DNA of 40,870 nt from a virus: the UHGV virus genome UHGV-2035542; one strand, written 5' to 3'. The notes below the pieces were generated by a model, which was not told where the DNA came from, made no database searches, and saw nothing but the letters and a program-made list of their open reading frames with translations. Shown here in pieces: positions 2,620 through 21,650 of this stretch. The translations under genes and the position numbers were made by a program. Every line of letters begins with the position of its first letter. Position 1 is the first letter of the stretch.

Positions 2620-2843
2620 GCTTTAACCTCCTGCACATCAACCGCATTCACCGCGCTATTGTGTCTCACAGACTTAAGCGCCGCAATGCAGTCTGACTTG
2701 CAAATGCGATATGGGCTTTTAGGTTTATCTGGATTTATCTTTGCGGCTTGAAGTCGTCCACTTCGTATCCACTGCGTGATAGTGCCTTTGTCTACCTTCA
2801 GATACGACGCAGCCTCTTCACGAGTGAAGATTTCTTCTTCCAC
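2496..2843 (-). CDS. xis: excisionase (probable GTG start; the track ORF extends to 2915)
   Basis: Directly upstream of int and overlapping its 5' end; HTH-like segment (REEAASYLKVDKGTITQWIRSGRL); GGAGA 7 nt before an in-frame GTG. Confidence 0.55.
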   Translation of the reverse strand: MEEEIFTREEAASYLKVDKGTITQWIRSGRLQAAKINPDKPKSPYRICKSDCIAALKSVRHNSAVNAVDVQEVKACQSNYAVARGTAISSRQMDQELDVLLKHRTKGKRKNFTIV

Positions 2844-2932
2844 CTGGAATCTCCATTTATTGGATTGACATGATTGCTGTAGGTCTGGATATCTTGAGAA
2901 GCTGGCAGGCCTCATCGAGTGTGAGACTGTGG

Positions 2933-3277
2933 TTAGTCCTTGCGTAGCTTGCTGATTCTTCTGTAAGTCTCTGGTGCTTTGTTTCCGTGTATCTTCATTT
3001 CAGACTTCAACAGAGCAACGAGAGAATCCCATTCGTTGAGGATGCCTTTGAATGCCGGAACGCGCTTTGCAACCTTGTCGAATGAATCTCTGATTTCTGG
3101 AATCTGCTCAACAAGTGCAACGCATCGCCGGAAGTCTGCTGCGTCATGGGGAGCGCCGAAGTGATGACCATAGATATTCTTTTTCAGTCCACATGCGATT
3201 GAGGCAAGAGTTGCGCTACTGATGCCAACATCGCCAGTCGATTGCCATTTCAAAACCTTCATAGCCAAATCTGACAT
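2933..3277 (-). CDS. hypothetical phage protein (start trimmed to second Met)
   Basis: ORF with GGAGA RBS before MSDLAMKV; the first Met of the track ORF lies inside a terminator hairpin. Confidence 0.45.
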   Translation of the reverse strand: MSDLAMKVLKWQSTGDVGISSATLASIACGLKKNIYGHHFGAPHDAADFRRCVALVEQIPEIRDSFDKVAKRVPAFKGILNEWDSLVALLKSEMKIHGNKAPETYRRISKLRKD

Positions 3278-8520: not shown

Positions 8521-8644
8521 TGATGTGTTTTGATATTAAATGTTTGATAGCAAAAAGAATTAATTTTGTGACTTGCATCGCATAGCGATAACTGAAGCAG
8601 TAGTGTGGTGGTTTTTTGAGCGGTGTGTGATGAGGGGAGGGGAC

Positions 8645-8671
8645 AAAAGAAAACCCGGCACGGTGGCCGGG
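8645..8671 (-). terminator. intrinsic terminator closing the cI/kinase-like/DUF3037-like operon
   Basis: Minus strand: CCCGGC-CACCGT-GCCGGG hairpin followed by TTTTCTTTT, just downstream of the 8698 stop. Confidence 0.6.
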
Positions 8672-8697
8672 TTATTAATTAAATTAGTCAGTTTTTT

Positions 8698-9504
8698 CTA
8701 CTGTAACATAGAGGCAGCATTCAGCATCTTTTCGTAATATGAACGCATGTCTTCTTTGCTATATGCGTTGATAAGATTATCAGCGTGTTTTTCCAGTAGA
8801 TTTAGCTGCTGTTTTGCTGACTTTTCTTGTGCTGTCGTTTCAGCGGCAAAAATTACAAATGAATCAATATTTGAATTGTATAATTCGTAGGCTTTAGTAA
8901 TTGTTAAAACACTTATCGCAGCTTCACCCATTTGTTTTTTTATATTTTCAGAACGAAAATCTAATGTTTCTGTAAGATGGTATTTGCCATTTTTTAACAA
9001 AAAATCTGCAACTAACCCTTCTTCATTACTAATTGGATAATTAGCTACGATTTTATGTTGGGAAAGATCTTCAAAATACTTACTGAAAATTCCATGTTGT
9101 ATAAAGGTGGATTTTAATTCAGAAAAAACCTTTTTTTTCAACTGCTTATGTGGTTGTTTTTGTGGGTTTACTAACCGATTCATTAGATCAGTAACTTTAG
9201 CTTCGTAATCTTCGTTGGCTTGAAGAGTGAACATGCCAAATGACGATAACGATAATGCTCCCTTAAAAAGACAAGGAAGAAGTTCAGCATTGTTGATTTT
9301 TTGTGACAAATCAAAAAGCGAGGTTGAAAGATCCTCTAAGTAATCTAAGGTAAGATCTTTGTCAATCGCTTTAAGTTTTGAAACTGAATTGAGCATACGT
9401 ACGTCTATGTCAGAGTCATGGTAAACGATCAAACCAACGTTAATCGTTTCACCTTTCTCTAAGTTCGGTGTAACTCTGATTAAGCTGTATTTGAAAGTTT
9501 TCAA
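8698..9504 (-). CDS. DUF3037-like protein (268 aa), TTG start coupled to the upstream gene
   Basis: TTGA start/stop overlap with the kinase-like gene; GGAG about 10 nt upstream; N-terminus KYSLIRVTPNLEKGETINVGLIV resembles DUF3037-type proteins (from memory); visibly AT-rich. Confidence 0.6.
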   Translation of the reverse strand: MKTFKYSLIRVTPNLEKGETINVGLIVYHDSDIDVRMLNSVSKLKAIDKDLTLDYLEDLSTSLFDLSQKINNAELLPCLFKGALSLSSFGMFTLQANEDYEAKVTDLMNRLVNPQKQPHKQLKKKVFSELKSTFIQHGIFSKYFEDLSQHKIVANYPISNEEGLVADFLLKNGKYHLTETLDFRSENIKKQMGEAAISVLTITKAYELYNSNIDSFVIFAAETTAQEKSAKQQLNLLEKHADNLINAYSKEDMRSYYEKMLNAASMLQ

Positions 9505-10349
9505 GATGTTATCTCCAGTCTTATGGCATTTAGCCTATCGATTCGCTCCTCGCTATCCCACCACTTCAAAAAATACTCCTTATGCATTGGTGGCATCCAT
9601 GCTTCAGGCATAGAGTTAAGTATATCAGATATAGTCTCAACTCCAATTTTTTCAATTTTGTCAAGGACAGATAATGCGCACTTTCTCAGATCATCAGTGT
9701 CGCCAATGAATTGTTTAGCAATCGTCCAGTTTGTTGTTGTACTGGAGTCTGTTGGTAGTATATGAGGGGTATTTCGTGGCCAGCCTATAACAAAAGAGTT
9801 TAGACTAAAATCGAATGTTTTAACTATAACATTGCCTCGGGTGTTTTCCATGTATAAGTAGTTGTTGAGGTGTCTGTCAATGTTATATACAAACTGATCA
9901 AATGCATAAATTGCCCAGAGTTGCTTCTTTAAGGATTCAGAAGCATTTGAGAGCAAATTTATCCATTGAGGACTATTGAGACCAGATTTCCAGGCTGAAA
10001 ACTCTATGCGAGAGCCAAAAACATACTCCCCATTAGCAATACACTTGAGAATTTTGCACACAGGTGTAGCGATGCCGCATTTTTCAGCTAAATTTGTGCA
10101 AAACCATTCCGCTGCCGGTACTTGAGTTGGGTTTTGTACAGGAAAAGGTGGGGTGGAACGCATGCTTTTAACTGCATATTCCATTTCATCAGTGGCAATA
10201 GCGAAACCAGAAAGGTGTGCAGTGCCTAAGCTTGAAGGTGTATATTCATGAAATTCTAATTCAAACAAACTTCCTTGCTCTGGTTTCACTTCATCAGTGT
10301 TTGGCTCTTGTTCTTTCGTCATCAACTTTTTTCCCCAAATCGAAGACAT
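9501..10349 (-). CDS. protein-kinase-like fold protein (HipA/PI3-4-kinase-like catalytic signature), 282 aa
   Basis: AAGAGG RBS; YAVK (K61), catalytic-loop-like NIDRHLNN (D158-R159-H160...N163) and DFS (D180) about 20 residues downstream; 46 nt after the cI stop on the same strand. Confidence 0.65.
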   Translation of the reverse strand: MSSIWGKKLMTKEQEPNTDEVKPEQGSLFELEFHEYTPSSLGTAHLSGFAIATDEMEYAVKSMRSTPPFPVQNPTQVPAAEWFCTNLAEKCGIATPVCKILKCIANGEYVFGSRIEFSAWKSGLNSPQWINLLSNASESLKKQLWAIYAFDQFVYNIDRHLNNYLYMENTRGNVIVKTFDFSLNSFVIGWPRNTPHILPTDSSTTTNWTIAKQFIGDTDDLRKCALSVLDKIEKIGVETISDILNSMPEAWMPPMHKEYFLKWWDSEERIDRLNAIRLEITS

Positions 10350-13012: not shown

Positions 13013-13710
13013 AAAACATCGCCGCACAGATGGTTAACTTTGACCGTGAGCAGATGCGCCGGATCGCCAACAACATGCCGGAACAGTACGACGAAAAGCC
13101 GCAGGTACAGCAGGTAGCGCAGATCATCAACGGTGTGTTCAGCCAGTTACTGGCAACTTTCCCGGCGAGCCTGGCTAACCGTGACCAGAATGAACTGAAC
13201 GAAATCCGCCGCCAGTGGGTTCTGGCTTTCCGGGAAAACGGGATCACCACAATGGAACAGGTTAACGCAGGAATGCGCGTAGCCCGTCGGCAGAATCGAC
13301 CATTCCTGCCATCACCCGGGCAGTTTGTCGCCTGGTGCCGGGAAGAAGCATCCGTTAACGCCGGGCTGCCAAACGCCAGCGAGCTGGTTGATATGGTTTA
13401 CGAGTATTGCCGGAAGCGTGGCCTTTATCCGGATGCAGAGTCTTATCCATGGAAATCAAACGCGCATTACTGGTTGGTTACCAACCTGTATCAGAACATG
13501 CGGGCCAATGCGCTGACTGATGCGGAATTACGGCGCAAGGCTGCCGATGAACTGACTTGTATGACCGCGCGAATTAATCGTGGTGAGGCGATACCTGAAC
13601 CAGTAAAACAACTTCCTGTCATGGGCGGTAGACCACTTAACCGGGCTCAGGCTCTGGCGAAGATCGCAGAAATCAAAGCTAAGTTCGGACTGAAAGGAGC
13701 CAGTGTATGA
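13009..13710 (+). CDS. P: replication protein P (lambda-type helicase loader), 233 aa
   Basis: MKNIAAQMVNFDREQMRRIANNMPEQYDEKPQVQQVAQIINGVF... matches lambda P from memory. Confidence 0.95.
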   Translation: MKNIAAQMVNFDREQMRRIANNMPEQYDEKPQVQQVAQIINGVFSQLLATFPASLANRDQNELNEIRRQWVLAFRENGITTMEQVNAGMRVARRQNRPFLPSPGQFVAWCREEASVNAGLPNASELVDMVYEYCRKRGLYPDAESYPWKSNAHYWLVTNLYQNMRANALTDAELRRKAADELTCMTARINRGEAIPEPVKQLPVMGGRPLNRAQALAKIAEIKAKFGLKGASV

Positions 13711-14000
13711 CAGGCAAAGAGGCAATTCTTCACTACCTGAAAACGCACCGGACTTTCTGCGCGCCGGATGTAGCTGCGGCAACAGGCGTGACTGTAACCA
13801 GCATCAATCAGGCAGCAGCCAAAATGGCACGGGCAGGAATCCTGGTCGTTGATCGCAAGGTCTGGCGAACGGTGTATTACCGGTTCGCTACCAGGGAGGA
13901 GCGGGAAGGAAAGGTGAGCACGAACCTGATTTTCAAGGAGTGTCGCCAGAGTGCCGTGATGAAACGGGTATTGATGTTTTGGGGGAGGGTAGGGGTATAA
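13707..14000 (+). CDS. ren: Ren-like protein
   Basis: MTGKEAILHYLKTHRTFCAPDVAAATGVTVTSINQAAAKMARAG... matches lambda Ren from memory. Confidence 0.85.
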   Translation: MTGKEAILHYLKTHRTFCAPDVAAATGVTVTSINQAAAKMARAGILVVDRKVWRTVYYRFATREEREGKVSTNLIFKECRQSAVMKRVLMFWGRVGV

Positions 14001-14288
14001 GCGAAACGTTATGAGTGTGTGGGTATTCGTGCCATTGCGATGTGGTAGAGAGTGCTGAGGGCGTCATGGTTGTGTTGCGAAAACTACGTTGCACTTGAGC
14101 AGGATCTTGCAGAATTTGAGCGCGAGTTCCGTGTTGCTGATGCGACTATACCCTCGATGTAGAGGAACTTAATTAGCTGATTGTAATTCAATATGCCTAC
14201 TAAGACCGGTTGGGTATGAACTAGTAAAGGCTGCAAAATCCTATAGAGTGTTAACGCAACCAAAAACGTTAAGCACGGAGAAAAAAAT

Positions 14289-15041
14289 ATGGATCCTAAA
14301 TTACTGTATGCCACGTTTAAACGAAATGACGCACCAGCTTGGCGCTGCCCGAACTGTATGAATGAAACACTGGAGATTGTCGCTGATAGTTTTGTAGAAA
14401 CTGATTCAAGCGCAACAACTCAGTTTAGAGATGAAGTATGGTTTGATGAGGAAATGTCGGGAGGAGTATTCAGTTGCGTGCTGCGCTGTACCCGCCAAGC
14501 CTGCCAGGAGAAGGTTGCTTTGTCTGGGCAGGTTGTTGCTGTAGAATGCTTCAATGACGAAATGACGGAGCGTTGGTATGTTTCTGGTTTCCGTCCTAAG
14601 TATTTCTATCCACCACTTCCTCTATTCCTGTTTCCTGAAAAGTGCCCTGAAGATATAGCTGATCTCTTGGCGGAAGTATCAGCTCTGATCCCCTCGCACC
14701 CAGCTTCAGCGGTGAACACCATGAGAACCATACTGGAGATGATGCTTGATAGTCTTGATGTACCAAGAGAGAAAACAGTTAAAGGCAAGATAATACGTCT
14801 TTCTACGCATGAAAGAATCACAAATTATTCAGATAAACTGGGACCAAATAAAGATGCATTCATGGCGTTAAAGTGGTTGGGGAATCACGGCAGTCATGGA
14901 GGGATTAAAGTCACAAGGTCCTCTATTAATGATGCCTGCATTCTCATTGGTCATTTGATTGACTTCTTATTCTTAGAAAGCCCGGATGTAACTATTCATA
15001 TTGAACGGATAAACAACGTGTATGCACCCAAAAAGGAGTAA
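14289..15041 (+). CDS. zinc-ribbon protein with a HEPN/DUF4145-like C-terminal region (degenerate motif)
   Basis: CPNC...CVLRC cysteine pairs; C-terminal KWLGNHGSHGG (N199-x3-H203-G) then a hydrophobic helix; GGAG RBS; AT-rich with its own upstream intergenic region. Confidence 0.55.
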   Translation: MDPKLLYATFKRNDAPAWRCPNCMNETLEIVADSFVETDSSATTQFRDEVWFDEEMSGGVFSCVLRCTRQACQEKVALSGQVVAVECFNDEMTERWYVSGFRPKYFYPPLPLFLFPEKCPEDIADLLAEVSALIPSHPASAVNTMRTILEMMLDSLDVPREKTVKGKIIRLSTHERITNYSDKLGPNKDAFMALKWLGNHGSHGGIKVTRSSINDACILIGHLIDFLFLESPDVTIHIERINNVYAPKKE

Positions 15042-15297
15042 AACGTAACGCCATGTCGAAGCGGAATATTGCCGCTAAAACACAAGAAGAGCGCGAGAAG
15101 GTTAACGTTGACCTTGCTGTCTCCTGAGTTACCTACAAAGAGCACCTTAATATACCGGTTATTGCCGAAGCGGTGATGCGTGAGCAGCCTGAGCATTTGC
15201 GGGACTATTTTTTGGAGCGGCCACGACATTACCGCGAGCAGAGCATCGCGCTGCCCAAGGCATCCGCTCCTCGACATCTTAAGCAGGAAGGTGAAAA

Positions 15298-15780
15298 ATG
15301 ATAAGTGCAGAAGGACTGCAGCGGTTACTTAATTTATCGGAGCCTCCATCTGATGAACTGATTGATGTTTATCTTCAATTCTGCATGATTTTTCCTAGGG
15401 TCGAGCAAAGTTTTTTTGGTGGCTTTGCTAAGGGGGAAGACAGTTTAAATTATGCGCGAACGTTACTTGACGCCGGGATAAAGGTGCCCAACGAACTTTT
15501 TCACGATTTTAAGCAGAGATACATTTTGAATGGGGATGCGCAGGAAAGACTTGACGCCCTCTGTGTCGGTCGAGAGAGAGATAGGCGGGGAATAGTTAAT
15601 GGACTTCAAAATGACGCAGCAACAGATCTAAACACCATGTCTACAGTATTAAAGATAGTTATAAGGATAAGAAATAACCTTTTCCACGGAAATAAAGACG
15701 CTTATCTTTTTGTTGATTCTCAAGAGCAAGCGCAACTATTGAGGTGGTGCGTGAGATTTCTCCAAGGATTATTAAATTAA
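15298..15780 (+). CDS. HEPN-like protein (R-x4-H motif)
   Basis: C-terminal RIRNNLFHG (R125...H130, codons 15670..15687) followed by a terminal helix; AGGAAGG RBS. Confidence 0.55.
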   Translation: MISAEGLQRLLNLSEPPSDELIDVYLQFCMIFPRVEQSFFGGFAKGEDSLNYARTLLDAGIKVPNELFHDFKQRYILNGDAQERLDALCVGRERDRRGIVNGLQNDAATDLNTMSTVLKIVIRIRNNLFHGNKDAYLFVDSQEQAQLLRWCVRFLQGLLN

Positions 15781-15969
15781 TCTACCTTTGATTTTCCATA
15801 ATCAACCAGCAATAATAATGTCACCGGAGCCTGAACAACATCGGTGACTTCTGCGCTAAACGGGGACGTTTATGCGCACATACAATCCAAACTCTCTTCT
15901 CCCTTCACAGATGCAGAGATGCACCTGCGATTTTTTGCATCCAGCGTTTGACCTCTGCGGAGGTGAAGC

Positions 15970-16425
15970 GTGAACCTCCCACAAGACGGCATCAAATTGC
16001 ATCGTGGTAACTTCACCGCTATCGGCCAGCAGATCCAGCCTTATCTGGAGGAAGGCAAATGCTTTCGCATGGTGCTTAAACCGTGGCGTGAGAAACGCAG
16101 TCTTTCCCAGAATGCACTCAGCCACATGTGGTACAGCGAAATCAGTGAATACCTCATCAGCAGGGGTAAAACGTTCGCCACTCCAGCTTGGGTAAAAGAT
16201 GCTCTCAAACACACATATCTCGGTTATGAAACCAAAGACCTGGTTGATGTCGTAACCGGTGAGATCACCACTATCCAGTCGTTACGCCATACCTCCGATC
16301 TTGATACCGGAGAGATGTATATCTTCCTGTGTAAGGTTGAAGCCTGGGCGGTGAATATTGGCTGCCACCTGACTATTCCGCAGAGCTGCGAGTTCCAGCT
16401 GCTCCGCGACAAGCAGGAGGCGTAA
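15970..16425 (+). CDS. ninB: NinB-family recombination protein (GTG start)
   Basis: [12 protein letters not shown] motif like lambda NinB; GGAGG RBS 8 nt before GTG. Confidence 0.75.
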
Positions 16426-17991: not shown

Positions 17992-18516
17992 TTATTGTTT
18001 AACCCATAATAATTCATTGACATTGAATCCCAACTTTTGAGCGGTTCGCACATAGTCTGCTTTTACTTTATCTGGAATAGTTGGGGTCCTTGCCAGAATC
18101 CATAGGTATTCTCTGTTCGGACCACTGACAAGAGCATACTTATACTCATCATCCAGTTTGATTACATTATAGCCACCATAGAAGGGGCCAAAAAACGAAA
18201 CCTTCAACGCTGCAGTTTTAGTATCTCCAGTAAAGTATGCTTTACCTTCGCTCTCGCTCCATTTATTTTTCGTTGGATCGTATCCACGGTTAAGTACACG
18301 AATCCCTCCGTCGTTCCGTTTTCCATAAGTAGCGCTGACCTGTTCCAGACCACGTTCGAACCGGTTCTCGAGGCGAGCTATTTCATACCATTTTCCGAGG
18401 TAGCGGTTGGCGTCAAAATTTGTAATCGGCTGCACACCTTTAGGTGGTGTCGGGGCCTTACATGCTATAAGAGTGAAAGAGAGTGCAATGCCAGTCAACA
18501 CAGGCCATAACTTCAT
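17992..18516 (-). CDS. bacterial lipocalin (Blc-like) outer-membrane lipoprotein
   Basis: Lipoprotein signal with LIAC lipobox; NFDANRYLGKWYEIARLENRFERG...FFGPFYGGYNVI matches Blc from memory. Confidence 0.85.
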   Translation of the reverse strand: MKLWPVLTGIALSFTLIACKAPTPPKGVQPITNFDANRYLGKWYEIARLENRFERGLEQVSATYGKRNDGGIRVLNRGYDPTKNKWSESEGKAYFTGDTKTAALKVSFFGPFYGGYNVIKLDDEYKYALVSGPNREYLWILARTPTIPDKVKADYVRTAQKLGFNVNELLWVKQ

Positions 18517-18708
18517 AATAAATCCTGTACTTTTGATAGTTGAGAGTAAGTATGAAAGATAGATGATTACGACCGATCACTTAAAGAACTTTCATACTAT
18601 ATTAGGAATAGTCCATAACAGAAAAATTGTCAGTGATGACGCCAGAAAGGCAATTTATTCCGTGCATTACACAGTTTATGTGTTAATGAATTAGTCAAGG
18701 GGGAGAAT

Positions 18709-19668
18709 ATGATAAAAAAACCTGTGATTGGAATCAGCGGTTGTTTGACCGGTTCTGCTGTTCGTTTTGATGGTGGTCACAAAAGAGCTGACTTTTTAAT
18801 GGACAAATTAGTGGAATGGGTAACATTCAGACCAGTATGTCCAGAAATGGCTATAGGGCTGCCAGTTCCGCGTCCTGCTCTACGTCTTGTGCGCTCGACG
18901 CAAGGAAATATACGGATGTGTTTTAGCCACGACCAGAATGAGGATGTGACAGAGAGAATGACAGAGTTTAGTCGTTCTTATATGAACAAATTAAAGGATG
19001 TATCGGGGTTTGTGGTTTGTGCTAAATCTCCCAGCTGTGGCATGGAGCGCGTGCGTGTCTATGATGAAAATGGTAATCGAGGTCGTAAAGATGGAGTGGG
19101 ACTATTTACGAGCACTTTGATGGAAAAGTTTTCCTGGCTACCGGTTGAAGAGGATGGGCGATTACATGATCCAGTGCTTCGTGAGAATTTTGTTGAAAGA
19201 GTTTTTGCTTTGCATGAGCTCAATCATCTTTACAAGGAGAAATTATCAAGAAGAGAGTTATTAGCTTTTCATAGTCGTTATAAGCTTCAGTTATTGGCGC
19301 ATAGTCAGGCAGGCTATAAAGATATGGGACCATTTGTGGCTGCAATACACGAGTGGGCGGACCTTGAATCATACTTTGAGGTGTATCGTGATAAGCTGAT
19401 GGCGATTCTCAGAAAACCTGCATCACGTAAAAATCACACGAATGTGCTGATGCATATACAGGGGTATTTTAGTAACTACTTAAGTACACGCCAGCGTAAA
19501 GAGTTGAGCGAGGTTATACTTAACTATCGTTCTGGCACATTACCTCTTCTTGCGCCGTTGACTCTGCTGAAGCATTATCTGGGTGAGTATCCTAATGATT
19601 ACTTGCTTACACAGAATTACTTCGATCCCTATCCGGACGAACTGGCTCTAAGACTGATGGTAAATTAA
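18709..19668 (+). CDS. DUF523 (TudS-like thiouracil desulfidase fold)/DUF1722 fusion protein
   Basis: Conserved Cys pattern GISGCLTG, CPEMAIGLPVPRP, SPSCG consistent with a [4Fe-4S] DUF523 domain; C-terminal helical DUF1722-like region. Confidence 0.65.
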   Translation: MIKKPVIGISGCLTGSAVRFDGGHKRADFLMDKLVEWVTFRPVCPEMAIGLPVPRPALRLVRSTQGNIRMCFSHDQNEDVTERMTEFSRSYMNKLKDVSGFVVCAKSPSCGMERVRVYDENGNRGRKDGVGLFTSTLMEKFSWLPVEEDGRLHDPVLRENFVERVFALHELNHLYKEKLSRRELLAFHSRYKLQLLAHSQAGYKDMGPFVAAIHEWADLESYFEVYRDKLMAILRKPASRKNHTNVLMHIQGYFSNYLSTRQRKELSEVILNYRSGTLPLLAPLTLLKHYLGEYPNDYLLTQNYFDPYPDELALRLMVN

Positions 19669-20842: not shown

Positions 20843-20937
20843 GAATAGATGTTCAAGCCTTACGCTAATGTAACTTCTATACCTTTCCTCTTCGTTCCGA
20901 ACCGTGTACACCATCCGTTATTTGCGGAGGTGAGGCT

Positions 20938-21153
20938 ATGAAATCCATGGATAAGTTAACAACGGGCATTGCCTACGGCACCTCCGCAGGCAGTGCTGGC
21001 TACTGGTTTTTACAGCTGCTCGATAAAGTCACGCCCTCACAGTGGGCAGCAATAGGTGTGCTGGGTAGCTTGGTATTTGGCCTGCTGACGTACCTGACAA
21101 ACCTTTATTTCAAGATTAAAGAAGATAAGCGCAAGGCTGCGAGAGGTGAATAA
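20938..21153 (+). CDS. S: class II holin (S21-type pinholin) with dual-start motif MKSM
   Basis: [24 protein letters not shown]...[24 protein letters not shown]; two TMDs; the dual Met start is typical of holin/antiholin pairs. Confidence 0.85.
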
Positions 21154-21650
21154 TGCCTCCATCATTACGAAAAGCTGTTGCTGCTGCTATTGGTGGCGGG
21201 GCTATTGCTATAGCATCTGTGTTAATCACTGGCCCAAGTGGTAACGATGGTCTGGAAGGTGTGAGACATAATCCTTACAAAGACATAGTTGGTGTATGGA
21301 CTGTATGTTACGGACACACCGGAAAAGACATTATGCTCGGTAAAACGTATACCGAAGCAGAATGCAAAGCCCTCCTGAATAAAGACCTTGCCACTGTCGC
21401 CAGACAAATTAACCCGTACATCAAAGTCGATATACCGGAAACAACGCGCGGCGCTCTTTACTCGTTCGTCTACAACGTGGGTGCTGGCAATTTCAGAACA
21501 TCGACGCTTCTTCGCAAAATAAACCAGAGTGATATCAAAGGCGCATGTGATCAGCTACGGCGCTGGACATACGCTGGCGGTAAGCAATGGAAAGGTCTCA
21601 TGACTCGTCGTGAGATTGAGCGTGAAATCTGTTTGTGGGGTCAGCAATGA
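21153..21650 (+). CDS. R: SAR endolysin (lysozyme with N-terminal signal-anchor-release domain)
   Basis: Gly/Ala-rich N-terminal hydrophobic SAR segment ([18 protein letters not shown]) followed by a lysozyme-like catalytic region; overlaps the holin stop. Confidence 0.85.

Follow-up and report, generated by a model that had tools for sequence, protein, structure and literature searches.

RAZR (for ring-activated zinc-finger RNase), or PD-T7-4, is a defence RNase in which an N-terminal Cys4 zinc finger is joined to a C-terminal DUF4145 domain (Zhang et al., Nature 2026, PMC13017515; Vassallo et al. 2022, PMC9519451). RAZR forms assemblies around ring proteins of phages (portal, Gp77) and then cleaves single-stranded RNA nonspecifically; it cleaves single-stranded RNA in vitro, and the substitutions R146A and H154A abolish defence (PMC13017515). 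A validated Escherichia coli system, DS-38, is also a single protein with a HEPN domain and a zinc finger, which according to its authors differs from the zinc-finger domain of PD-T7-4 (DefensePredictor, PMC13092281; bioRxiv 10.1101/2025.01.08.631726), and so provides a precedent for several zinc-finger-HEPN lineages. Here we analysed two adjacent genes of the UHGV virus genome UHGV-2035542, a stretch of 40,870 nucleotides (nt) that we refer to as the window. One gene encodes a 250-amino-acid (aa) zinc-ribbon-like protein with a DUF4145 domain, the other a 160-aa HEPN-like protein. On balance we think it likely that they are two independent single-gene candidates for RNase-type defence or abortive infection, which sit with a decayed theta gene in an exchangeable slot and have separate histories.

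DUF4145 is a HEPN family in Pfam clan CL0291, and its fusions to zinc ribbons are known (Anantharaman et al. 2013, PMC3710099). In HEPN proteins an Rx4-6H motif sits where helix 3 ends and the loop to helix 4 begins, the residue following the Arg is polar (N, D or H), inserts separate helices 2 and 3, and helix 4 is kinked; for DUF4145 the same survey describes the R...H motif as 'mostly conserved (80%)' (PMC3710099).

The window matches, in coordinates and features, the lambdoid prophage of E. coli IAI1 (NC_011741 807337-848206). The genes for the 250-aa protein (14289..15041) and the 160-aa protein (15298..15780), both on the + strand, lie between a Ren-like gene (13707..14000) and ybcN/ninB (15970..16425), an interval to which a preliminary description of the locus had also assigned them. 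The three open reading frames (ORFs) of that description were all found at their coordinates, including a small one at 15173/15176..15301 (+), as was the ATGA overlap between this small ORF and the 160-aa gene (15298-15301). The motifs also stand at the positions reported: CPNC at residue 20, CVLRC at 63 and KWLGNHGSHGG at 195 (N199, H203) in the 250-aa protein, and RIRNNLFHG at 123 (R125, H130) in the 160-aa protein. Both genes were correctly described as AT-rich, with G+C fractions of 0.436 (250-aa gene) and 0.408 (160-aa gene), below those of P and ren (0.54) and of ybcN (0.51).

A DUF4145 protein with an invariant lysine

The 250-aa protein is identical to WP_000371307.1 of IAI1. It matches Pfam PF13643 (DUF4145) over residues 132-216 (profile positions 5-83 of 88) with an E value of 7.9e-12 and 45.5 bits, against a gathering score of 23.1, and its close homologs all carry PF13643. 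A full-length PHROG, phrog_1305, matches as well (E 8.7e-45). Across 15 aligned homologs, the most distant at 32% identity, K195, G198, N199, S202 and H203 are invariant, and together they define the HEPN-type motif K195-W-L-G198-N199-H-G-S202-H203 (14871..14897, +). K-x3-N-x3-H is also present in the SEN8 phage homolog. The same alignment revealed a conserved Pro-rich linker and an invariant N-terminal Cys cluster, C20-x2-C23 ... C63-x3-C67-x4-C72 (14346..14504, +). We found no Pfam zinc-ribbon match in the N-terminal region; the five cysteines presumably form a zinc ribbon, which would bind zinc.

Of the Arg...His motif of DUF4145, the His (H203) is invariant and the Arg position is occupied by an equally invariant Lys (K195). 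Since the motif is only 80% conserved in the HEPN survey (PMC3710099), this substitution does not exclude membership, and on the basis of the profile match we regard the 250-aa protein as a bona fide member of DUF4145 and hence of the HEPN clan. The presence of K195 throughout the family points to a conserved role and not to decay. In the preliminary description the protein had been called degenerate, with Gly in place of the Arg; this was most likely a register error, as the R-x7-H spacing of RAZR (R146/H154) puts the invariant K195 at the Arg position.

The likeness to RAZR may extend to the whole architecture. Both are single proteins of a similar size class (220 aa for RAZR, 250 aa here) in which a conserved linker joins an N-terminal Cys-rich region, a presumed zinc ribbon in the window protein, to a DUF4145 domain at the C terminus, and in both the basic residue is separated from the His by seven residues (R146/H154 in RAZR, K195/H203 in the window). 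They differ in the residue itself, which is the catalytic Arg in RAZR and Lys in the window protein, and in the N-terminal region, which is longer here and has the pattern C-x2-C...C-x3-C-x4-C. The 250-aa protein thus appears to be RAZR-like in architecture and to represent a distinct subfamily; judged by sequence, with the PADLOC PD-T7-4 model and searches of PDB chains, it is not a member of the RAZR family. The possibility that it is DS-38 was also considered and rejected on accession and length, DS-38 being WP_001313577.1, with 1101 nt (~366 aa).

Homologs of the 250-aa protein occupy slots in other prophages and mobile elements as single genes: one lies beside AAA_21 and HNH genes in a P2-like Serratia prophage, one adjoins gpA in phage SEN8, and one adjoins an integrase in Pantoea. 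This recurrent single-gene placement in prophages fits a defence role. By analogy with RAZR/PD-T7-4, the N-terminal Cys-rich domain of the 250-aa protein would sense a phage protein, and the C-terminal HEPN domain would then cleave RNA through a site formed by K195, N199 and H203, aborting the infection. If so, a Lys-containing lineage of zinc-finger-DUF4145 proteins recurs in both P2-type and lambda-type prophage slots. Such a lineage could reveal how far the RAZR principle reaches, with a variable zinc finger that senses phage assemblies and switches on a HEPN RNase, and whether Lys can replace the catalytic Arg.

In Serratia plymuthica (locus L021, 4001-6459) a 48%-identical DUF4145 homolog was found 0.9 kb upstream of a gene for a 257-aa RiboL-PSP-HEPN protein (PF18735, E 8.6e-6), with a 152-aa gene of unknown function between them, an arrangement that echoes the one in the window.

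A large family of stand-alone HEPN-like proteins

The 160-aa protein is identical to WP_000622057.1 and belongs to a large family for which there is no Pfam model. An exhaustive HMMER search recovered 174 representatives, and a profile search with the family gave 966 clusters, all annotated as 'hypothetical', none with Pfam domains, mostly of 160-180 aa and stand-alone. The only PHROG match was to a group of 'unknown function'. Across 80 homologs, down to ~20% identity, E36, R74, R123, R125, N127, H130 and K133 are invariant and G131 is nearly so, while position 126 is either N or H, giving the family motif R-x-R-[N/H]-N-x2-H-G-x-K. In the window this candidate catalytic motif reads R123-I-R125-N126-N127-L-F-H130-G131-N-K133 (15664..15696, +). 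Such conservation makes the motif of each of the two families, taken by itself, more than a chance resemblance.

An AlphaFold2 model built on the 80-sequence alignment is all-alpha, with a predicted local distance difference test (pLDDT) of 93.9 and a predicted template modelling score (pTM) of 0.90; an earlier model made with 9 close homologs had a pLDDT of 44 and was discarded. In the retained model R-N-N-L-F-H closes a long helix (residues 110-129), H130-G131 begin the next loop, a kinked terminal helix follows, and three helices are inserted earlier in the chain. The R125-N126-N127-L-F-H130 segment, invariant or nearly so in the 80 sequences, has the Rx4-6H form and lies at the helix end and loop start, as in HEPN proteins. 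The 160-aa protein is thus predicted to have HEPN topology, and the support beyond topology is suggestive, not decisive.

Part of that support comes from RiboL-PSP-HEPN (PF18735), proteins reported to be fused to endoRNase L-PSP or to occur in operons with ParB (PMC3710099). The motif R-N-x3-H-x2-K-x2-Y of the 160-aa family recurs in one RiboL-PSP-HEPN protein, and Pfam searches with family members gave weak matches to HEPN_RiboL-PSP (PF18735; 2 of the 80 members, best E value 1e-4) and to HEPN_Apea, with one match to SWT1_3rd. PF18735 did not match the 160-aa protein of the window at E values up to 1, and a Foldseek search of its model against PDB and BFVD returned only noise. Sequence comparison would accordingly make it a distant relative of RiboL-PSP-HEPN at best, not a member.

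The family has already been flagged computationally. Table S10 of DefensePredictor (Science 2026) lists the cluster represented by WP_000622057.1 among uncharacterised predicted defence genes, with a mean log-odds of 12.94 against a stringent cutoff of 4, and gives as its best HHblits match PD-T4-2_B, a RiboL-PSP-HEPN protein, with a probability of 59.5 (PMC13092281). What is new here is the Lys variant of the zinc-finger-DUF4145 architecture, with its likeness to RAZR; neither WP_000371307.1 nor WP_000622057.1 appears in the main text of the papers searched. That published machine-learning screen places the 160-aa family, whose members are HEPN-like proteins of ~165 aa, near the top of the untested E. 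coli defence candidates.

PD-T4-2 is a two-gene system of DUF262 and HEPN proteins (PMC9519451), whereas the 160-aa family is stand-alone and without a conserved partner: the neighbours differed at every distant locus examined. Distant members sit among integrases, transposases, toxin-antitoxin genes, AAA_21 ATPases and E2/JAB genes, and the two convergent ORFs found downstream of such members are unrelated to each other. Nor did the protein resemble HepT/MNT, in which a HEPN toxin is paired with a minimal nucleotidyltransferase antitoxin, for there was no match at the sequence level, and neither here nor in 12 further neighbourhoods does a nucleotidyltransferase gene adjoin the 160-aa gene. 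A profile scan of genome contigs (alignment A4) returned one locus. On a metagenome contig (L013, 1-4501) a distant family member overlaps by 4 bp the end of a gene for a 529-aa protein without Pfam match, which is preceded by genes for a 321-aa unknown protein and an ORC/Cdc6-like ATPase; in that lineage it may belong to a multi-gene operon.

In the mechanism that we propose, R125 and H130 would build a metal-independent RNase site to which R123, N127 and K133 contribute, and the protein would be dimeric, probably, by analogy with other HEPN proteins. It most likely acts alone, as a defence or abortive-infection effector.

Two separate genes and a decayed theta gene

In the preliminary description the two proteins were taken for one HEPN-based module with an active and a degenerate subunit, possibly forming a heterodimer with a composite site, and with the 41-codon ORF as a small coupled partner. 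The genes are indeed adjacent and on the same strand in 47 of the 56 E. coli genomes that match the region, although these 47 co-occurrences are near-identical copies of one prophage and not independent events. Both proteins can be called HEPN-type, on the strength of a PF13643 score above the gathering threshold for the 250-aa protein and of topology and motif for the 160-aa protein. Pfam searches gave a DUF4145 match for the 250-aa protein and no match for the 160-aa protein itself, and a link between the two families was not recovered: aligned with hhalign, their profiles gave a probability of 0.15%, and we rejected homology between the two proteins on this ground. Because of this result the N-x3-H-G common to both is not evidence of a specific relationship. 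The invariance of K195 also argues against treating the 250-aa protein as the degenerate subunit.

The distribution of the genes points in the same direction. The 160-aa gene has no accompanying DUF4145 gene in E. coli OkiPb01694, Salmonella, Klebsiella and Enterobacter; conversely, the DUF4145 homologs of Serratia, Pantoea and phage SEN8 are not accompanied by the 160-aa gene. In the lineage of E. coli NC101, the DUF4145 gene has no substitutions and stands beside a 160-aa gene with a nonsense mutation upstream of the motif, E93* (G15574T); the theta sequence of NC101 has an additional frameshift, a 1-nt deletion at 15243. Compared with the window, the NC101 locus has 2 differences in 14000-15129 and 27 in 15130-15850, which places a mosaic junction close to where the theta pseudogene has its 5' end. 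The DUF4145 homolog of Serratia plymuthica that lies 0.9 kb from a RiboL-PSP-HEPN gene might seem to favour a pair, but none of the neighbours of DUF4145 homologs, this one included, belongs to the 160-aa family. Taken with the identity of the small ORF, described next, these results make a two-subunit system very improbable; the two genes appear to be independent modules, and the case is a warning against inferring such a system from adjacency and a short common motif.

The sequence between the two genes derives from a gene for the theta subunit of DNA polymerase III. The frame 15053..15301 (+) is similar to theta over its full length, with an in-frame TGA at codon 25 (15125-15127) where intact relatives have Gly (GGA), and RefSeq annotates the region as a pseudogene ('internal stop'). 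Intact copies of 77-84 aa are present in Salmonella and Klebsiella prophages, the Salmonella counterpart being 73% identical to P1 Hot. Compared with P1 Hot and E. coli HolE, the frame of the window aligns along its whole length but is a pseudogene. The 41/42-codon ORF (15173/15176..15301) corresponds to the C-terminal part: its 42-aa product matches PF06440 over profile positions 40-68 of 70 (E 2.5e-8; 34.0 bits against a cutoff of 34.6), the NCBIfam theta model matches it too, and no clear Shine-Dalgarno sequence precedes 15173..15301. From these matches, the RefSeq annotation and the TGA at codon 25, the small ORF is a pseudogene remnant and not a dedicated partner, and 15053..15301 does not encode a functional theta. 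The remnant has a G+C fraction of 0.51, unlike its AT-rich neighbours on either side. A second theta (Hot-like) pseudogene, also with an internal stop, lies at 2762-3043 (-), beside an IS3-family insertion (1535-2655) and int/xis, so the same prophage holds two decayed copies of theta, which is a regular accessory gene of the nin region in some lambdoid phages.

We also considered whether theta and the 160-aa protein form a functional unit that is degenerating in E. coli, theta acting as antitoxin or regulator, or providing a link to Pol III proofreading. In Salmonella and Klebsiella prophages the intact 77-84-aa theta gene overlaps the 160-aa gene by ATGA, and elsewhere one small gene separates a full-length theta (E 2e-29) from a downstream gene whose product is 41% identical to the 160-aa protein. 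However all E. coli copies of theta that we examined are pseudogenes, while IAI1 and OkiPb01694 retain an intact 160-aa gene, and an essential antitoxin would not be expected to go first. None of the 37 phage records that carry theta has the 160-aa gene, and family members with ≤31% identity lack a nearby theta. In HK639 theta is followed by a 73-aa gene and then by NinB, so that synteny of the nin region can explain the linkage. We therefore hold such a unit to be unlikely. A more far-reaching proposal, distinctly unlikely in our estimate, makes the 160-aa protein the prototype of a new, widespread family with ~1,000 clusters at 90% identity. Its members would be minimal HEPN-like defence nucleases that stand alone, operate without antitoxin or separate sensor domain, and are functionally tied to theta/Hot in enterobacterial prophages, for example by being held in check by the theta-epsilon interaction of Pol III or by monitoring it. 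Were it true, such a defence logic would have no described precedent.

The 250-aa protein could instead be a zinc-finger protein that binds DNA or has a regulatory role, or a DUF4145 protein left catalytically dead by the exchange of Arg for Lys. phrog_1305 carries the label 'DNA binding protein' and the SEN8 homolog is annotated likewise, R146A abolishes defence by RAZR (PMC13017515), and the R...H motif of DUF4145 is listed as only ~80% conserved (PMC3710099). The PHROG label however comes without a stated experimental basis, Lys can give the same positive charge as Arg, and the invariance of K195, N199 and H203 in the subfamily argues for a conserved chemical role; together with the recurrent single-gene prophage slots, which fit defence, this leaves the alternative a low probability. 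For the 160-aa protein the rival reading is that it is not an RNase and that its helical fold serves to bind a ligand or a partner, as in an anti-defence protein or a phage regulatory factor expressed from pR in lytic growth, with the R...H residues used for binding. This we consider rather doubtful.

Several observations weigh against the reading of the two genes as independent RNase-type defence or abortive-infection candidates. The 160-aa protein has no match in Pfam, NCBIfam or PADLOC, and its invariant E36 stands in an E-Q-S-F-F context, not in E-x3-[KR], the form that the second conserved acidic residue close to the HEPN active site typically takes. The 250-aa protein is likewise without a match in NCBIfam, and in PADLOC at E values up to 1, the PD-T7-4 model included; this model matched one of 15 relatives, with an E value of 0.026, and the RAZR chain was not recovered from the PDB sequences when these were searched at E values up to 10; profiles of both families and the SEN8 homolog gave no meaningful match among PDB sequences. 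The exchange of the catalytic Arg for Lys could have altered or abolished activity, and a stand-alone RNase without an evident antitoxin or sensor domain needs some form of regulation, which raises the question of how such a HEPN protein is kept silent. Finally the AT-rich intergenic leader upstream of the DUF4145 gene (14001..14288, G+C 0.444) contains no sigma-70-like site; its promoter counts did not exceed those of shuffled sequences and no lysogen promoter was identified. The RNase activity, anti-phage function, trigger and mode of regulation that we infer for both proteins should be read in this light; we still judge their framing as prophage cargo with a possible role in abortive infection, already put forward in the preliminary description, to be reasonable.

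The cargo slot and other features of the prophage

A 1.85-kb stretch of the region was present in 56 of 5,426 complete E. coli genomes, and the same query found no close match in the phage collection searched. Similarity to other lambdoid phages stops at about the end of ren, which places the left edge of the cargo at the leader. In OkiPb01694 (L002, 1147-2780, equivalent to ~13710-15230 of the window) genes for a phosphoribosyltransferase-like (PRTase) protein and a NADAR protein replace ren and DUF4145 between P and the theta remnant; PRTase and NADAR are the gene pair of the validated DS-32 system (DefensePredictor, PMC13092281). In phage PhiR30_1 the slot is filled by acyltransferase and lipoprotein genes. 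The region from ren to ninB is thus an exchangeable cargo slot in lambdoid prophages, occupied by DUF4145, by PRTase and NADAR, or by acyltransferase or lipoprotein genes. In a prophage of Enterobacter mori (L007, 5875-7776) a gene for a 633-aa NACHT-domain protein lies directly downstream of the 160-aa homolog and before the remaining nin genes, and is likely to be further defence cargo in the same region.

Across 13900-16000 we found no credible Rfam match, no meaningful repeats and no boundary repeats, and promoter and terminator scans of the region gave counts not above those of shuffled sequence. An inverted repeat, GTCACCG...CGGTGAC with a loop of ~15 nt, is present at 15819-15848, in the spacer that separates the 160-aa gene from orf33/ybcN; it was not called by the terminator scan and no T-run follows it. 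In the homologous record of phage 82, a possible regulator-binding site and a -35 signal are annotated near this position.

Elsewhere in the window there is other accessory cargo, all on the - strand: an ImmA/IrrE metallopeptidase and DUF4411 pair lies beside the repressor (8618-10266), a porin gene lies downstream of Q (18033-19130), and a gene for the serum-survival lipoprotein iss is present at 20921-21214.

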